Program-made: the position numbers and the translations under genes
Notes under the pieces: generated by a model
The model's input: only the letters and a program-made list of their open reading frames with translations
What the model was told of the DNA's origin: nothing
Database searches by the model: none
Source: Candidatus Multivorans sp.
GTDB taxonomy: Bacteria > Acidobacteriota > Thermoanaerobaculia > Multivoradales > Multivoraceae
Assembly: GCA_965238135.1 (NCBI GenBank)
Contig: OZ250177.1
Span: 3,045,593 to 3,109,592 of the forward strand
DNA: 64,000 nucleotides
Direction: 5' to 3'
Part shown: one piece after another, positions 31,327 through 35,949 of the stretch
How positions within the stretch are numbered: position 1 is the first letter of the stretch
How the letters are laid out: each line of letters begins with the position of its first letter

Positions 31327-31558
31327 CGTCAGCAGGCTGATCGACGCGGCCGTAAGGGCGACCAGGAAGCCCGATCGCGAGCCCGCGCCGAAGCCTCTTC
31401 GGTCCGCGGGAAGGTGAGCAGATCTACGCTGGACGGCTCTTCTGGATTGTCGCGTGGTCCACTAATCTAGTCGTTCTGCACCCGGCGCTCCATTGACTGG
31501 CTCGCCGCATGCCTGTTAGAACCCGCTGCACTAGCGCCCTGCCGGGCGCGCGCGACTT

Positions 31559-31634
31559 GCCCAGGTAGCTCAGTCGGTAGAGCACCTGACTGAAAATCAG
31601 GGAGTCGGTGGTTCGAATCCGCCCCTGGGCACCA
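31559..31634 (+). tRNA. tRNA-Phe(GAA)
   Basis: GCCCAGG/CCTGGGC acceptor stem, anticodon GAA, GTTCGAATC, encoded CCA. Confidence 0.95.
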
Positions 31635-31817
31635 TCCGCGCCGCCCCGCAAACGGGAGCAGACGAGGCGGCTTCTGCGGCAGCAACCCTATTCCGCAGGA
31701 AATCCGCAACCGTCACCGACCCGACCGAATTCAAGGTTGCAAGGGTCAAGTCGCTGAGACTCAATCAGTTAGGACTCTCACGCCGGCATCGGCCCGAGGC
31801 CGTCCGCCGCCCTTCCC

Positions 31818-31847
31818 TTGACACGACCTTTAGGCGCCCTATACGTT
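31818..31847 (+). promoter_or_regulatory. Sigma70 promoter of the large ncRNA
   Basis: Perfect TTGACA at 31818, 18-nt spacer, TACGTT at 31842; predicted start near G31855. Confidence 0.75.
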
Positions 31848-31854
31848 GTTTCCC

Positions 31855-32710
31855 GGATAGGGACTGTGACCAAGGATCGCAACCCAATCCACCGGTCCAA
31901 GAGCCGAGACCCTCAGACCGGAGCTTGAGAAGGGCGAAAGTCACGTTCGCGTGGTGGGCGCACTTCAAGAGCGAGGGTCGGAAGGTCACGACTCGAGAGC
32001 CGGGCTCGGTGGCAGGAGCCACTTGGAGCCGGAGAAACCGAGGCGCAAGCCGAGGCAACCCTGACGACATGAAGCTCCAGCTAGCGAGTGGCTCCCGTAG
32101 CCGAAGGCTTCCCCGGGAGTGGCACCGAGAGGCGCAAGCCTCGTGGTGCCTAATCTAAGGGGAGGCGGCTTCAGGGGGGCGAACGGTCGGAAGTTGCCCG
32201 GCAGCAACGGAAGGCTGATCGCTAACTGAAGCGCTTCATCGGCGGACGCTTCGGGGGCTTCGTCGTGAGACCCGACCAGTCGAGCGACGAAGTACCCCCA
32301 AAGGCGAGAAGTCGACGGAGAGAGAGGCAGGGAGTCCCCGCGACGGCGGGCCGCAAAGTGATCGGTTCGGAGGCGCAAGCCGAGGAACCGGCCATGGCGG
32401 AACGACGGCGCGGACCTTTCGGCCACCCGAGCCGGAGGGTTGAATGCGAAGGCGCAAGCCGGAGCGGGAAACCCGAAGGCAAAGGGCGAACGAAGGGGAG
32501 TCCCGGCGAACCCGGACGGGGCTGGAGGGGCCGCAAGGTTCCACCGCCGGAGCCGCAAGGCAAGGGCGCCCAGGTCTGAACGGAAGGATCGGTGGCGCGC
32601 AAAGCGCTCCACGACCGGATGCCCGCCAAGCTGAAGGGTCGAGGAAACGCGAGCGAGGGATGAGAGACTTAAGGTCGGTTCGGGTGAGAACCCCGGAGCG
32701 GTCCCTATCC
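31855..32710 (+). ncRNA. Candidate large (~856 nt) highly structured non-coding RNA of unknown family
   Basis: 5' GGATAGGGAC (31855-64) pairs perfectly with 3' GTCCCTATCC (32701-10); nested long-range helices; many GNRA/UUCG-capped hairpins; promoter upstream, U-tract downstream; no credible ORF. Confidence 0.8.
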
Positions 32711-32719
32711 TCTTTTTTT
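32711..32719 (+). terminator. U-tract directly after the closing helix of the ncRNA (probable transcript end)
   Basis: TCTTTTTTT, a rare run in this GC-rich window. Confidence 0.55.
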
Positions 32720-33019
32720 GGCCCGCAGAACCTAGCACACTGACGCCGTAAGTGCAACCGTGCCAGGGATTTACGTCCCCTGACAAACACGCCGAGGCCC
32801 GGGTGCCGGAATGTTCGGCTCCCGCCCAGACGTTTTACCGCGAGAAGCCAGGGCCGGCCAGGACTCGGACACGCGATGCATCCGATGTTCCCTCAGAGCC
32901 AACGGACCGCCGAAATCGGTACCTGACGCTCCGTCGCTCCCCTGGCGCCAGTAGCTCCGCACAGTGATCCAGGCTTGGGTCCGCGCTTGCCATAGCAAGC
33001 GACGGCGCAAGTCAGGGGG

Positions 33020-33047
33020 GTCACGAACTGGTCACGCAACCGTCACG
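33020..33047 (+). promoter_or_regulatory. Three GTCACG direct repeats with 11-bp period (OmpR/PhoB-type operator)
   Basis: GTCACG at 33020, 33031 and 33042, upstream of a wHTH regulator. Confidence 0.5.
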
Positions 33048-33179
33048 CATCGCCCGGAATGCTCCGTGCGTAGTGTCCTTTTGTGTCCTCTAAAACCAGG
33101 GTCCCCAATTCGGAACACCACTTTCGGGGCTGGAAAACGCCAAACAACAGCTCACTCGTAGAAGTCCAAGGGCAAGCTC

Positions 33180-34130
33180 ATGCAGCGCGATAACGGCTCG
33201 TCGCACGAGGGACGCCTGGGCACGAAACGCGACCGCACCTTCCCTGCACGCCCTCGCCGGCTTGAGTTCGGCGAGTTCCGCCTCGATCCCGAGACCCTGG
33301 AACTCTCCGGCCTCGGGCGCACGGTACGGCTTCAGCCCCAGCCCGCCCGACTCCTCGAGTTACTGATCGCGCACCGTGGCGCAGTGGTCTCGCGGGAGGC
33401 CGTCCGCCGCCATCTCTGGCCCGACGAAGTCCACGTCGAGTACGACCAGAGCATGAACTCCTGCGTCAAGCGAATCCGGGTCGTACTTGGCGACAGCGCC
33501 GACACACCCGAGTACATCGAGACGCTGCCGCGCCTCGGGTACCGCTTCCTGAAGCCCGTGAGCGAAGTCAACGACGGCAACGAACCGATCCTCAGCAGGG
33601 GCGGCACCGCCCGGCGCTGGCGGTCAGGACCCGGCGCCGTGCTCGCCGCGCTCGGGGCGGCCCTCGGCATCGTCGCTACGGTCTTCGTCTGGCGCACGGT
33701 GGACTCGGGACCATCCACCGCGAGCGAACCGTCACGGCAGGTGCTGGCGGTCCTGCCCTTCTCGGCGGTGGAGACATGGTCCGGCGCCGAACCGTTCCGC
33801 CAAGGCCTGGCCCAGGAGCTCATCACGTCGCTCGGCCAGCAGGCGTCCGATCGGCTGGCGGTCGTCGCGTACGATGCCCGACCCTTCCCAAGCGCCGGCG
33901 GCGGAGCGACCGGGCTTTCAGCCGACTACCTGCTCGACGGTCGGGTTCAGCGGGAGCAGAATCGCCTCCGGGTCTGGGCCCGCCTGCTCCTGGCCGAGGA
34001 CGGAACCGTACTCTGGAGCGAGTCCTACGACGGCGCCGAGAGCGACATTCTCGTCTTCGAGGCGGAGGTGGGCTCACAGATCGCCAACGCGGTCCTCACC
34101 CGGTTGACGCAACTGGAACCGTACTCCTGA
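33180..34130 (+). CDS. CadC-like winged-helix regulator with TM helix and TolB-N-like domain
   Basis: FGEFRLD, LQPQPARLLELL, YIETLPRLGYRF, TM segment, LAVLPF, DYLLDGRV, LWSESYD. Confidence 0.85.
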   Translation: MQRDNGSSHEGRLGTKRDRTFPARPRRLEFGEFRLDPETLELSGLGRTVRLQPQPARLLELLIAHRGAVVSREAVRRHLWPDEVHVEYDQSMNSCVKRIRVVLGDSADTPEYIETLPRLGYRFLKPVSEVNDGNEPILSRGGTARRWRSGPGAVLAALGAALGIVATVFVWRTVDSGPSTASEPSRQVLAVLPFSAVETWSGAEPFRQGLAQELITSLGQQASDRLAVVAYDARPFPSAGGGATGLSADYLLDGRVQREQNRLRVWARLLLAEDGTVLWSESYDGAESDILVFEAEVGSQIANAVLTRLTQLEPYS

Positions 34131-34136
34131 CCGCAG

Positions 34137-34838
34137 CTACGGGGAGCGCCACGAACCCGGACGGCCGGGGAGCCCCCGAGCCGCTTCGAGTTCGTCGAGA
34201 AAGCGGCCGCGCGGGATCTCCTCGGCGCCGAGCCGGAGCAGATGCTCGGTGACCTGCTGGCAGTCCACGAACGCGTAGCCCCACCGTTCGAGGCAGTGAA
34301 CCAGATGAACCAGCGCGATCTTGGACGAGTTGGAGCGCCGGGCGAACATCGATTCGCCGAAGAACGCGCCGCCGATCGAGACCCCGTAGAGGCCGCCCAC
34401 CAACTCGCCGCCCTTGAGGCATTCGACCGAGTGAGCGTGGCCGAGCCGGTGCAGGCGCTCGAACGCGTCGATCAGCGGATCCGTGATCCAGCTCCCCTCC
34501 TGTCCGGGACGGGGGTTCTCGGCGCAGGCCGCAATGACCTCTCTGAAGCGCGTGTCGATCGTGACCTCGAACGGGTCGCGCCGGAGTTCGCGCCGCAAAC
34601 TGCGCGACATTCTGAACCGCTCCGGATAGAGCACCAGACGCGGATCGGGCGAGAACCACAGCATGGGCCCGTCTGGACCCAGCAGCGGCCAGGGGAAGAT
34701 GCCGGACCGGTAGGCGGCGAGCAGCCGCTCCGGCTCGAGGCCTCCACCCACCGCGAGCAGGCCGCTTGGATCCGCCAACCGCGGCGGAGGGAAGGCGATG
34801 CCGCGATCGTCGAGCCGGAAAGGTCCTCTCCGGTCCAT
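34137..34838 (-). CDS. aat: Leucyl/phenylalanyl-tRNA--protein transferase
   Basis: GLLAVGGGL, AYRSGIFPW, WFSPDPR, LVGGLYGV, FFGESMF. Confidence 0.95.
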   Translation of the reverse strand: MDRRGPFRLDDRGIAFPPPRLADPSGLLAVGGGLEPERLLAAYRSGIFPWPLLGPDGPMLWFSPDPRLVLYPERFRMSRSLRRELRRDPFEVTIDTRFREVIAACAENPRPGQEGSWITDPLIDAFERLHRLGHAHSVECLKGGELVGGLYGVSIGGAFFGESMFARRSNSSKIALVHLVHCLERWGYAFVDCQQVTEHLLRLGAEEIPRGRFLDELEAARGLPGRPGSWRSP

Positions 34839-34866
34839 CCAGCGCAGGTTACCTGTCTGCGCCGGA

Positions 34867-35949
34867 CTACACGTTGAACCGGAAGTGGACGACCTCGCCG
34901 TCCTGCACGCGGTACCCCTTGCCCTCCAGGCGCAGGGTCGCGCGTTCGCGGCAGACGGCCAGCGATCCGGCGTCGATCAATTCCTGCCACCCGGTCACCT
35001 CGGCGCGAATGAAGCCACGCTCAATGTCGGAATGAACGGCGCCCGCCGCGGTCACCGCCGCGCTGCCCCGGCGGATGGTCCAGGCGCGGACCTCGTCGTC
35101 GCCGACGGTGAAGAAGGAGATCAGCCCCAGCAGCTCGTAGCCCGCCTGCACCACCCGGACCGCACTCGGCTGGTCGAGTCCCGCTTCGGCCAGGAAGTCG
35201 CCCTGATCGGCCAGGTCGAGACGGGAGATCTCCTCTTCCAGGCAAGCGCTCACGGCAAGGAGTTTCATCCGAGCGCTCGATGACGAGCGCTCGGACTGGT
35301 TCGCGTGTGGCGCGGGGTCGCCCGCCACGTCCTCGTCGACATTCAGCACCACCAGCATCGGCTTTCGGGACAGGAGGCCGTAGCCACGCAGCCGCTTCTC
35401 GTCCTCCGCGTCGAGGTCCATGAGGCGCAGCGGCGTTTCCGCCTCGAGCGCCGGCAGAATGCGGTCCGACAGCATCGCGCGCTCGCGTTTCTCCAGGTCG
35501 GTGATGCCTCTCTTCTGCGCCTGATCGAGACGCTCCAATCGCCGCTCCACCACCTCGTAGTCCGCGAGAATCAGCTCCAGATCGATCGTGGCGATGTCGC
35601 GCTGCGGGTCGATGCGACCCGCCGGGTGCAGGAGTTCCGGGTCCTCGAAGGCGCGCACGACGTGGACCAGGGCGTCCATCATCCGCAGTTCAGCCAGGTC
35701 CAGGGTCTCTCCCCGGCCCCGGTCGATGCCGGGAACATCGACGCATCGGACCTGCGCCGGCACGTAGCGCCGCGGCTGGTAGAGATCCCGGAGCTTCTCC
35801 AGGCGCCGGTCCCGTACCTGGGCGATTCCAACGTTCGTCGTGTTCGAGGCCCGGAACTTGCCGGTCGCCTGCCGGGAGGCAGTGAGCGCATTGAACAGCG
35901 CCGTCTTGCCGGCCTTGGGCAGGCCCAGGATGCCGAGTTGCATGTTCAC
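34867..35949 (-). CDS. ychF: YchF/Obg-like ATPase
   Basis: GILGLPKAGKTALFNAL, LISFFTVG.DEVRAWT, HSDIERGFIRAEV, RLEGKGY..DG..FRFNV. Confidence 0.92.
   Translation of the reverse strand: MNMQLGILGLPKAGKTALFNALTASRQATGKFRASNTTNVGIAQVRDRRLEKLRDLYQPRRYVPAQVRCVDVPGIDRGRGETLDLAELRMMDALVHVVRAFEDPELLHPAGRIDPQRDIATIDLELILADYEVVERRLERLDQAQKRGITDLEKRERAMLSDRILPALEAETPLRLMDLDAEDEKRLRGYGLLSRKPMLVVLNVDEDVAGDPAPHANQSERSSSSARMKLLAVSACLEEEISRLDLADQGDFLAEAGLDQPSAVRVVQAGYELLGLISFFTVGDDEVRAWTIRRGSAAVTAAGAVHSDIERGFIRAEVTGWQELIDAGSLAVCRERATLRLEGKGYRVQDGEVVHFRFNV

Follow-up and report, generated by a model that had tools for sequence, protein, structure and literature searches.

The window analysed here, a stretch of 64,000 nucleotides (nt) from the genome of Candidatus Multivorans sp. 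(Acidobacteriota, class Thermoanaerobaculia; contig OZ250177.1, positions 3,045,593 to 3,109,592 of the forward strand), carries on its + strand, at positions 31855-32719, the sequence of a large, stable and highly structured non-coding RNA (ncRNA), whose family is absent from Rfam 15. We consider it highly probable that this segment is a real gene, transcribed independently of its neighbours, and that the structured ncRNA it specifies belongs to a family not described before. The primary transcript, with its ends inferred from a promoter, a terminal helix and a U-tract, would be 865 nt long. An earlier, sequence-only reading of this DNA had pointed to the same place and had described an independently transcribed RNA of several domains, which would be a new class or else distantly related to the GOLLD or ROOL RNAs; what became of its individual claims is told below with the results that bear on them.

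The structure of the RNA is supported by the comparison of homologues. We aligned 34 distinct homologous sequences, with lengths between 618 and 867 nt, and projected onto this alignment the minimum free energy (MFE) fold of the window sequence, which comprises 282 base pairs. Standard pairs are formed in 92.8% of the cells, versus 33.7-45.0% when the partners are slid against each other, and 43 of the 282 pairs are changed on both sides, versus 21.3±2.6 in shuffles (none of 500 reaching the observed number) and 14-23 in the slid controls. The covariation among homologues on which the sequence-only reading had made its ncRNA call depend is thus present. When a 33-sequence alignment is split by clade, 12 pairs differ compensatorily between the two clades and 18 show compensatory change within one of them. 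The best single test of the structure is provided by the most divergent homologue, that of genome G317, with 68% identity in the 5' half: of 204 pairs that can be compared with the window, 128 are identical, 27 are compatible through a one-sided change, 20 are changed on both sides and 29 are broken, versus 7-15 changed on both sides and 112-130 broken in the slid controls. Five of the G317 double changes fall in the 5' hairpin at 31901-31994, for which the other sequences gave no support.

The predicted fold is also much more stable than expected from composition, since the + strand RNA reaches an MFE of -437.1 kcal/mol versus -372.8±7.5 kcal/mol for dinucleotide shuffles (z = -8.57; 0 of 20 shuffles as stable), and the reverse strand of the gene gives z = -4.36. 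Homologues of 618 and 784 nt have z values of -6.76 and -7.92, respectively, and the terminal helix is kept in both; isolated 3' fragments of the RNA show no significant fold alone (z = +0.76 and +0.70). The nested helices of the sequence-only reading were split here into ten segments, with the bulged GGGGG-CTTCGTCG helix counted as two. Exact complementarity holds for eight of these segments, GGAGCCACTTG/CGAGTGGCTCC contains one U-G wobble, and the whole set is 92.3% paired in 33 homologues, versus 32-47% with the partners slid. These nested helices can therefore be retained, with the exception of the long-range helix between 32000 and 32422, which is weaker than had been stated: it is inexact, requires a bulge and pairs in 75% of the cells of the 20 homologues that possess its 3' partner. 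The conserved pairs include many G-U pairs, which would become A-C mismatches if read on the other strand, and every tetraloop motif reads GCAA on the + strand; the RNA is therefore placed on the + strand, which is, as had been remarked, purine-rich (60%, with 325 G and 197 A among the 865 nt).

None of the open reading frames (ORFs) at the locus behaves as a coding sequence. No ORF is conserved among 33 homologues, in which the longest open frames vary in frame, strand and length, and the ORF of 266 amino acids (aa) at 31986-32786 (-) has no Pfam match. The variable columns of the alignment are distributed over the three codon phases as 93, 94 and 93, that is, with no 3-base periodicity, and there are 186 insertions or deletions of 1-2 nt versus a single one of 3 nt, in addition to domain deletions of 82-83 and 164-165 nt. 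The RNA locus does not code for protein, and the overlapping ORFs, with neither a conserved frame nor a codon periodicity, are in keeping with the shadow ORFs that had been suspected.

At the 5' end, the promoter that had been read as TTGACA-18-TACGTT and aimed at G31855 is found in the window and among the relatives. Its -35 hexamer TTGACA (31818-31823), read directly, belongs to a CTTGACA motif kept in 31 of 32 homologous loci and in G317; an 18-nt spacer separates it from the -10-like hexamer TACGTT (31842-31847), which is kept in 28 of the 32 loci, and G31855 lies 8 nt past this hexamer. Three homologous loci have the -10 variants TAACTT, TAGGTT and TACCTT, and G317 has TTGACA-18-TAGCTT. 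The two hexamers are part of a longer block, CTTGACA...CCT(A/G)TACGTTGTTTC(G/C)C, located immediately 5' of GGATAGGG and also kept in 31 of the 32 homologous loci. A pattern search over the whole genome returned this full promoter pattern only once, at the RNA gene, and no shared regulon was found by it.

The ends of the RNA pair with each other. Its first 10 nt (GGATAGGGAC, 31855-31864) are the exact reverse complement of 32701-32710, and the terminal helix grows through U-G and G-C pairs to 13 base pairs (bp); in this helix, P1, the 5' strand GGAUAGGGACUGU (31855-31867) is joined in the MFE fold to the 3' strand GCGGUCCCUAUCC (32698-32710), the latter being seen also in the alignment. P1 is nearly invariant, with 98.6% of its cells paired and zero pairs changed on both sides. 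Immediately after it comes a U-tract (TCTTTTTTT; UCUUUUUUU) at 32711-32719, read directly, which is presumed to be the intrinsic termination site, and in each of the 33 other homologues P1 is likewise succeeded by a T-run. The paired ends and the U-tract of the sequence-only reading are accordingly conserved features of the family.

Between these ends, the MFE fold caps its hairpins with six GCAA tetraloops and one UUCG loop. The GCAA and UUCG caps that had been announced are thus present in the window; the GAAA caps announced with them are not clear there and are seen in homologues. The motif GGCGCAAGCC occurs four times in the 64-kb window, always within the RNA and on the + strand (0.44 occurrences expected), and the 301 unpaired positions include 144 A (48%) and 96 G. 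The natural length variants (618, 696-698, 712, 783-785 and 861-867 nt) correspond to a core of about 620 nt with two optional modules, V1 and V2, each made of GCAA-capped hairpins. The ends of the RNA are its most conserved parts and the variable domains are internal.

Following P1, a long 5' hairpin domain (31901-31994; MFE fold) carries the UUCG loop at 31946-31949, and its inner hairpin, GUCACG-UUCG-CGUGGU, is nearly invariant. The next domain (32008-32102) consists of an 11-bp helix, GGAGCCACUUG/CGAGUGGCUCC, which is 94% paired, and of an arm capped by GCAA (loop at 32045); the A-U pair 32021/32089 of this domain is replaced by G-C in G317. At the beginning of this domain, GGUGGC (32008-32013) has alternative partners, either GCCACU at 32018-32023, in a local hairpin with the loop AGGA, or GCCACC at 32422-32427, in V1, and a third pairing joins GCCAC to the GUGGC in the 11-bp helix (32086-32095). 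The same U/C and A/G substitutions preserve all three pairings, with compensatory change in each; these alternative pairings may constitute a conformational switch, or may be a coincidence of the two-clade phylogeny.

The central part is formed by three hairpins. In the one at 32107-32166, capped by GCAA in the window (loop at 32134) and by GAAA in many homologues, 8 pairs are changed on both sides. The hairpin GCUUCAG...CUGAAGC (32168-32232), which is comprised in the covariance model R1 described below, has the invariant loop CCGGCA (32198-32203), one helix that is 100% paired and two further helices with 7 pairs changed on both sides. The third one (32234-32320) has an invariant core, GAC-CCGACCA-GUC (loop 32272-32278), with tandem G-A flanks, and in one of its helices 14 of 22 pairs never vary. 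The optional domain V1 follows (32337-32502, 166 nt), whose two arms both terminate in a GCAA hairpin (32375 and 32454); it is whole in 20 of 33 homologues, half-present in that of locus L014 and replaced by gaps of 164-165 nt in 12 sequences. A direct repeat, GGGAGTCCC(C/G)GCGA, marks its two borders, at 32330 and 32496. The second optional domain, V2 (32508-32590, about 83 nt), is composed of two GCAA hairpins (32533 and 32555), is present in 15 of the 33 homologues and corresponds to gaps of 82-83 nt in 18 sequences. Both V1 and V2 come and go by deletion. In the 3' domain, a hairpin with a conserved GCCCGCCAAGCUG (32598-32655) has 3 pairs changed on both sides, and a terminal hairpin, UUCGGG-UGAGAAC-CCCGGA (32679-32697), which had earlier been called T-loop-like, is 100% paired with one-sided changes only.

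The sequence of the RNA gene is present in RNA from natural microbial communities. Among the 24 listed public runs that hold part of the stretch, which come from 9 studies, 14 are recorded as RNA, and in all four metatranscriptome runs analysed, of four studies, contigs lie on 31867-32667, many of them at least 99% identical to the window; one run alone contributed 590 contigs. The summed word depth per bin amounts to thousands to hundreds of thousands, which is a poor measure of expression, and the contigs give no level. Among the contig pieces listed, the gene is covered from 31867 to about 32667, with the P1 strands, 31855-31866 and 32698-32710, uncovered; none of the four runs has any depth in the bins 31644-31826 and 32681-32802, and from 32803 onward there is depth only in run X14, of about 3, at 32803-32985. 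One contig of run X3 ends at 32667 and continues with 21 letters unlike the window, which we take to be sequencing adapter. As a lead only, the uncovered ends could reflect an end-processing of the mature RNA or a poor recovery of transcript ends. The independent transcription put forward by the sequence-only reading is thus supported by the contigs of four RNA studies on the gene and by the conserved promoter, with the qualification that the contigs give neither strand nor ends.

An RNA match was found in 36 of the 42 genomes of the Candidatus Multivorans genus, and the genome of the window contains one full copy and one 60-nt fragment (blastn). A covariance model, R1, was made from the best-conserved 136 positions, taken from 32166-32302. 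In a sample of the order, R1 detected the RNA in 16 of the 19 other genomes that belong to the genus and in none of 131 genomes of 62 other genera, and 150 other genomes of the phylum gave a single 22-bit match (E = 0.034), taken as chance. With the filters off, R1 gave no match at the corresponding sites in G003, G011, G013 and G022, where the best E was 0.04, and it likewise found nothing downstream of the gene for phenylalanine transfer RNA (tRNA-Phe) in G011, G038, G125 and G130. A 22-mer from the 32234-32320 hairpin, searched in all species genomes, returned 31 stretches, of which 29 carry the RNA and two, actinobacterial, share only 22-26 nt; the same scan of viral contigs gave 0 matches. 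Ten stretches were returned by a 20-mer scan of metagenomes, three of them matching R1, and one non-matching stretch that was inspected is AT-rich unrelated DNA. The RNA-bearing stretches of these scans of species genomes and metagenomes all came from the group already known to carry it, the others being chance matches. The blastn searches against phage and plasmid collections gave no match. Within the reach of these searches, the RNA is so far confined to one genus of Acidobacteriota, in the class Thermoanaerobaculia.

The 60-nt fragment is located at about 1505-1565 of locus L002 (G000:C1:1853032-1853091) and copies, with 90% identity, RNA positions 709-769, which comprise the end of V2 and the GGUGGCGCGC...GCGCUCCAC hairpin; it is nearer to the variant of relatives (e.g. 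L004) than to the RNA of its own genome, and it overlaps the 3' end, stop codon included, of a 96-aa DUF433 gene (PF04255, E = 1.2e-14). In addition, 27 nt at G038:C2:52967-52993, in another family of the order, match the hairpin formed by RNA positions 736-762 (96%, E = 9.4e-5). This hairpin also recurs in L002 and is possibly a separately spreading GC-rich hairpin.

The RNA site is syntenic in all 34 loci, G317 included, with purH, tRNA-Phe, a Trans_reg_C regulator, aat and ychF as neighbours; the G317 locus is the same without the tRNA. In the window, the upstream neighbour is a tRNA-Phe (GAA) gene at 31559-31634 (+), identified by ARAGORN and by Rfam (tRNA, 75.2 bits). In 31 of 32 homologous loci, a tRNA-Phe precedes the RNA and shares its strand, at a distance of 187-255 nt in 30 of them and of 21 nt in L059; it was not found in the available upstream DNA of G001, nor anywhere in the G317 locus. 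The position beside tRNA-Phe, to which attention had been drawn, is therefore the usual one, without being universal. The spacer 31640-31817 has a near-constant length and contains a small hairpin, UGAGA...UCUCA, near 31755-31780. On the downstream side, a gene at 33180-34130 (+) encodes a protein of 316 aa with an OmpR/PhoB-type winged-helix domain (Trans_reg_C, PF00486, E = 1e-15), which is found downstream at every locus examined, G317 included, and also in G003, G013 and G022, three genomes without the RNA. Between the RNA and this gene, an element at 32720-32830 (+), CTAGCAC...GTAAGTGCAAC...CAG.AA.TTAC, is conserved in homologous loci, and G013 keeps part of it; its fold is not significant (z = -0.57), and it could be a promoter or operator of the downstream regulator gene.

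A 1191-bp segment (31640-32830) with the RNA gene, its promoter and the downstream element is missing cleanly in G003, where the blastn flanks join 31493-31639 to 32831-34900 with 47 nt between them. G022 and G013 are also without the RNA at the syntenic site, and in G011, which has a different gene order, there is no RNA after tRNA-Phe. In G013 (L046), a short hairpin, GGACCGUC...GACGGUCC, stands at the place of the RNA gene, about 60-110 nt past tRNA-Phe; the sequence before it, GCCTATAC, is similar to the -10 region, and the one after it, CGGTCCCGTCC, to the 3' end of the RNA. This hairpin has the appearance of a scar, left by an internal deletion in which almost all of the RNA disappeared. 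Two further genomes, G019 and G314, have no RNA match; in G019, tRNA-Phe and aat were also not found, so that the locus is probably unassembled and was not counted as a loss. The genomes confirmed to be without the RNA are four, G003, G011, G013 and G022. In the tree of the neighbouring regulator gene, G003 is sister to G010 (support 97/94) and G013 is placed inside the other clade (support 96/96). From these two placements we infer that the common ancestor of both clades already possessed the RNA and that at least two losses followed, and such independent losses make it an accessory RNA.

Several observations weigh against the reading of 31855-32719 as an independently transcribed gene of a structured ncRNA. 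All 34 homologues come from one genus and mostly differ along a single two-clade split, so that part of the covariation is phylogenetically confounded; an unsupervised list of covarying helices was swamped by this two-clade phylogeny, contained many spurious helices and was dropped. To the same side belong the pairs broken in G317 (29/204) and the parts of the 5'/3' multi-helix junction that fold differently between predictions. Helix P1 never covaries, and its near-invariance is neutral, speaking neither for nor against the helix. Both ends of the 31855-32719 transcript are deduced from signals, the contigs giving no start, end, strand or level, and simple consensus scans for promoters and terminators reported neither at the RNA locus: only 3 of the 6 letters of TACGTT agree with TATAAT, and the U-tract adjoins a helix that is long-range. 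Given these blank scans, the promoter and terminator calls rest on conservation. One homologous locus, L059 (2276-2897, -), is without the promoter and the first 7 nt of the RNA, which begins there 21 nt past the CCA end of tRNA-Phe and is intact in its remainder; this copy is either co-transcribed with tRNA-Phe, or decaying or an assembly artefact. Having been lost repeatedly, the RNA can evidently be dispensed with in some species. Lastly, the hints of a scaffold or an oligomer, discussed below, are limited to the six GCAA tetraloops and the A-rich unpaired regions, both of them indirect.

The 4227 families of Rfam 15 were scanned with cmscan. At the gathering score, the window gave five matches, all of them tRNA. 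When the threshold was relaxed to E<=10 on 31400-33200, the scan returned the tRNA, a tRNA-antisense match below gathering (E = 0.00087) and five matches at chance level (E of at least 1.4), and at E<=1 five homologous loci gave matches on the tRNA gene only. No family thus matched the RNA itself, either in the window at E<=10 or in the five homologous loci at E<=1, which is the outcome of the Rfam scan suggested together with the sequence-only reading. Searches of the genome with the ROOL, OLE, GOLLD and group-II-D1D4-1 (RF01998) models gave 0 matches at E<=1, a result that is weak alone, as these models found 0-3 of 14 control genomes; the ROOL model (RF03087), in particular, found 0 of the 14. 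At the locus there is no cmscan match to ROOL, GOLLD (RF02032) or OLE (RF01071), and ROOL and GOLLD have none in the five homologous loci either. Among the neighbouring ORFs scanned, no family resembling oapA or another Oap gene of OLE was detected.

The absence of hallmarks of RNase P RNA, transfer-messenger RNA (tmRNA) or a group II intron, asserted by the sequence-only reading, holds as well. RNase P RNA (RF00010) lies elsewhere in the genome (G000:C1:882151-882567, 233.5 bits) and none was detected at the RNA locus. ARAGORN reports five tRNAs and no tmRNA in the window, which is also without an Rfam tmRNA match. Concerning group II introns, no intron family matches the locus at E<=10, the neighbouring ORFs contain no reverse transcriptase domain, and the RNA has only one copy, always at the same syntenic position. 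No similarity to ribosomal RNA (rRNA) was found, a blastn search against the own genome retrieving only the RNA gene itself and the 60-nt fragment. A protein-binding sponge of the CsrB/RsmZ type was rejected, because CsrA (PF02599) was not found in this 99.1%-complete genome and GGA occurs 32 times in the RNA versus 27.8±4.2 in shuffled sequences. A large ornate bacterial ncRNA is, descriptively, longer than 500 nt, non-coding and endowed with a covarying structure, and the new RNA measures 618-867 nt, shows two-sided changes in 43 of its 282 pairs, versus 21.3±2.6 in shuffles, and contains no conserved ORF. We conclude that it is a new family within this loose kind and not a member of ROOL, GOLLD or OLE; of the two options that had been named, a new class or a distant GOLLD/ROOL relative, the first is the one that fits the lack of any Rfam family and of any ROOL, OLE or GOLLD match. 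Searches of the open-access literature listed no report of such an RNA.

In rRNA-type precursors, a long-range stem is formed by the 5' and 3' flanks; similarly, the ends of the new RNA pair over 13 bp and enclose its whole body, with the difference that there is no rRNA sequence similarity. The other comparisons concern the large ornate RNAs. ROOL is described as ornate, about 600 nt long, highly expressed, nonessential and with no identified protein partner; it is phage or prophage borne and, like GOLLD, "often near tRNA islands" (PMC12286853). The new RNA resembles ROOL in its size (618-867 nt), its adjacency to tRNA-Phe at most loci, its high word depth in RNA libraries and its loss in some species, and differs from it by the lack of a model match and, apparently, by its chromosomal housekeeping context: it stands beside a single tRNA-Phe, its neighbours are purH, the regulator, aat and ychF, and phage and viral collections gave no match. 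GOLLD exceeds 800 nt in many members and combines a conserved 3' region with a variable part, its function being given as unknown (PMC12286853). The combination of a conserved core with the optional V1 and V2 is reminiscent of this organization, and both RNAs are often tRNA-adjacent; in contrast to GOLLD, conserved at its 3' region, the new RNA is variable internally and conserved at both ends, and it is not phage-associated. OLE, of about 600 nt, is described as ornate, very abundant, restricted to one lineage, that of extremophilic anaerobic Firmicutes, and chromosomal, has its own expression signals and acts with protein partners, named Oap (PMC3413148; PMC12286853). The new RNA is also large, ornate, chromosomal and limited to one lineage, with its own signals, and is distinguished by the lack of a model match and of an Oap-like neighbour, and by its host, OLE being an RNA of Firmicutes.

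ROOL, GOLLD and OLE form RNA-only quaternary assemblies, a finding that left open how general this is for large natural RNAs (PMC12286853). By analogy with these solved structures, we hypothesized that the new RNA may be an architectural or scaffold particle, compact and similar in style to ROOL, GOLLD and OLE, a possibility that we regard as tentative. The terminal helix would protect the ends of the RNA, and the A-rich junctions and the six GCAA tetraloops, carried on near-identical GGCGCAAGCC hairpins, would dock into helices. Such docking might take place within one molecule or between copies, and would give rise to a nuclease-resistant fold or to a homo-oligomer. A somewhat more speculative version, which we would hold with less conviction still, is a self-organising RNA-only particle (a homo-oligomer or a cage, possibly a ribozyme), built of the core of about 620 nt and add-on tetraloop arrays, with a biochemical role unlike that of known RNAs; in this version, Acidobacteriota associated with sponges, and others from the environment, would produce the RNA in very large amounts.

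About equally likely as the scaffold particle, and hence just as tentative, is a role as the RNA subunit or decoy of a ribonucleoprotein, in which the RNA would bind, sequester or scaffold proteins, as 6S, CsrB and OLE do. The unpaired positions are rich in A and G (144 and 96 of 301), the invariant loops, such as CCGACCA and CCGGCA, are as expected for recognition sites, the high word depth in RNA libraries fits a titrating RNA, and OLE offers a precedent with protein partners (PMC3413148; PMC12286853). What such a role is short of is a partner gene travelling with the RNA, since the neighbours stay in the genomes without it, and its CsrB-type version is the one rejected above, with CsrA not found and GGA not enriched. 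The reading as a long cis-acting leader or attenuator of the downstream Trans_reg_C gene, which we consider very unlikely, has in its favour that the RNA is upstream of this gene and on the same strand at every locus examined, G317 included, and that a conserved element continues beyond the U-tract. Yet the U-tract closes the conserved structure 460 nt before the ORF, the regulator gene stays put in G003, G013 and G022 without the RNA, and the RNA-library contigs lie on the RNA, none of them bridging to the regulator gene. A length of 620-865 nt with optional domains, moreover, far exceeds that of known leaders.

Slightly less probable than a leader are two readings that tie the RNA to known elements. 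The RNA could be a very divergent GOLLD, ROOL, OLE, group II intron or RNase P-like member that the covariance models missed, with which its size, its ornate fold, its high word depth in RNA libraries and its tRNA-adjacent position, like that of ROOL and GOLLD (PMC12286853), agree; to this are opposed the lack of Rfam matches at E<=10 at the locus and at E<=1 in five loci (the four genome searches with single models being weak alone), the chromosomal housekeeping context without phage genes and without a match in phage or viral collections, the RNase P RNA located elsewhere and the lack of a reverse transcriptase or OapA-like neighbour. Or it could be the decaying remnant, with no present function, of a mobile element once integrated by tRNA-Phe (an intron, an integrative element or a satellite). 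That the 1191-bp presence/absence segment begins 5 nt past the 3' end of the tRNA gene, that a 60-nt copy of RNA positions 709-769 occurs elsewhere, at the end of the DUF433 gene, and that the optional domains are bounded by direct repeats would all suit such an origin. The genome, however, has a single full copy, all 34 loci share the same syntenic site, the vicinity contains no integrase, transposase or reverse transcriptase, the tree indicates ancestral presence and losses rather than repeated gains, long stretches and the pairing are under strong purifying selection, and the promoter is conserved. Finally, the locus might be a protein-coding gene, for instance the 266-aa ORF on the - strand, with folds that are incidental to a GC-rich sequence; long open frames do exist on both strands (e.g. 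31986-32786 (-)), but with no Pfam match, unconserved frames, no periodicity and 186 short insertions or deletions versus one of 3 nt, the probability of this reading is negligible.

The structured ncRNA gene at 31855-32719 adds to a small group, as bacterial ncRNAs that exceed about 500 nt and fold in a conserved, elaborate way are rare. It has been found in one genus only, and its hosts are apparently known only from metagenome-assembled genomes. Coming from a different phylum, and being chromosomal and not phage-borne, it provides an unrelated test case for the assembly of large RNAs. Its natural length variants already delimit a minimal core and dispensable modules, which makes it suited to structural work, and relatives with natural loss of the gene are available for comparison. 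The high word depth suggests that this RNA, currently unannotated, may form a noticeable share of the non-rRNA reads of these organisms.

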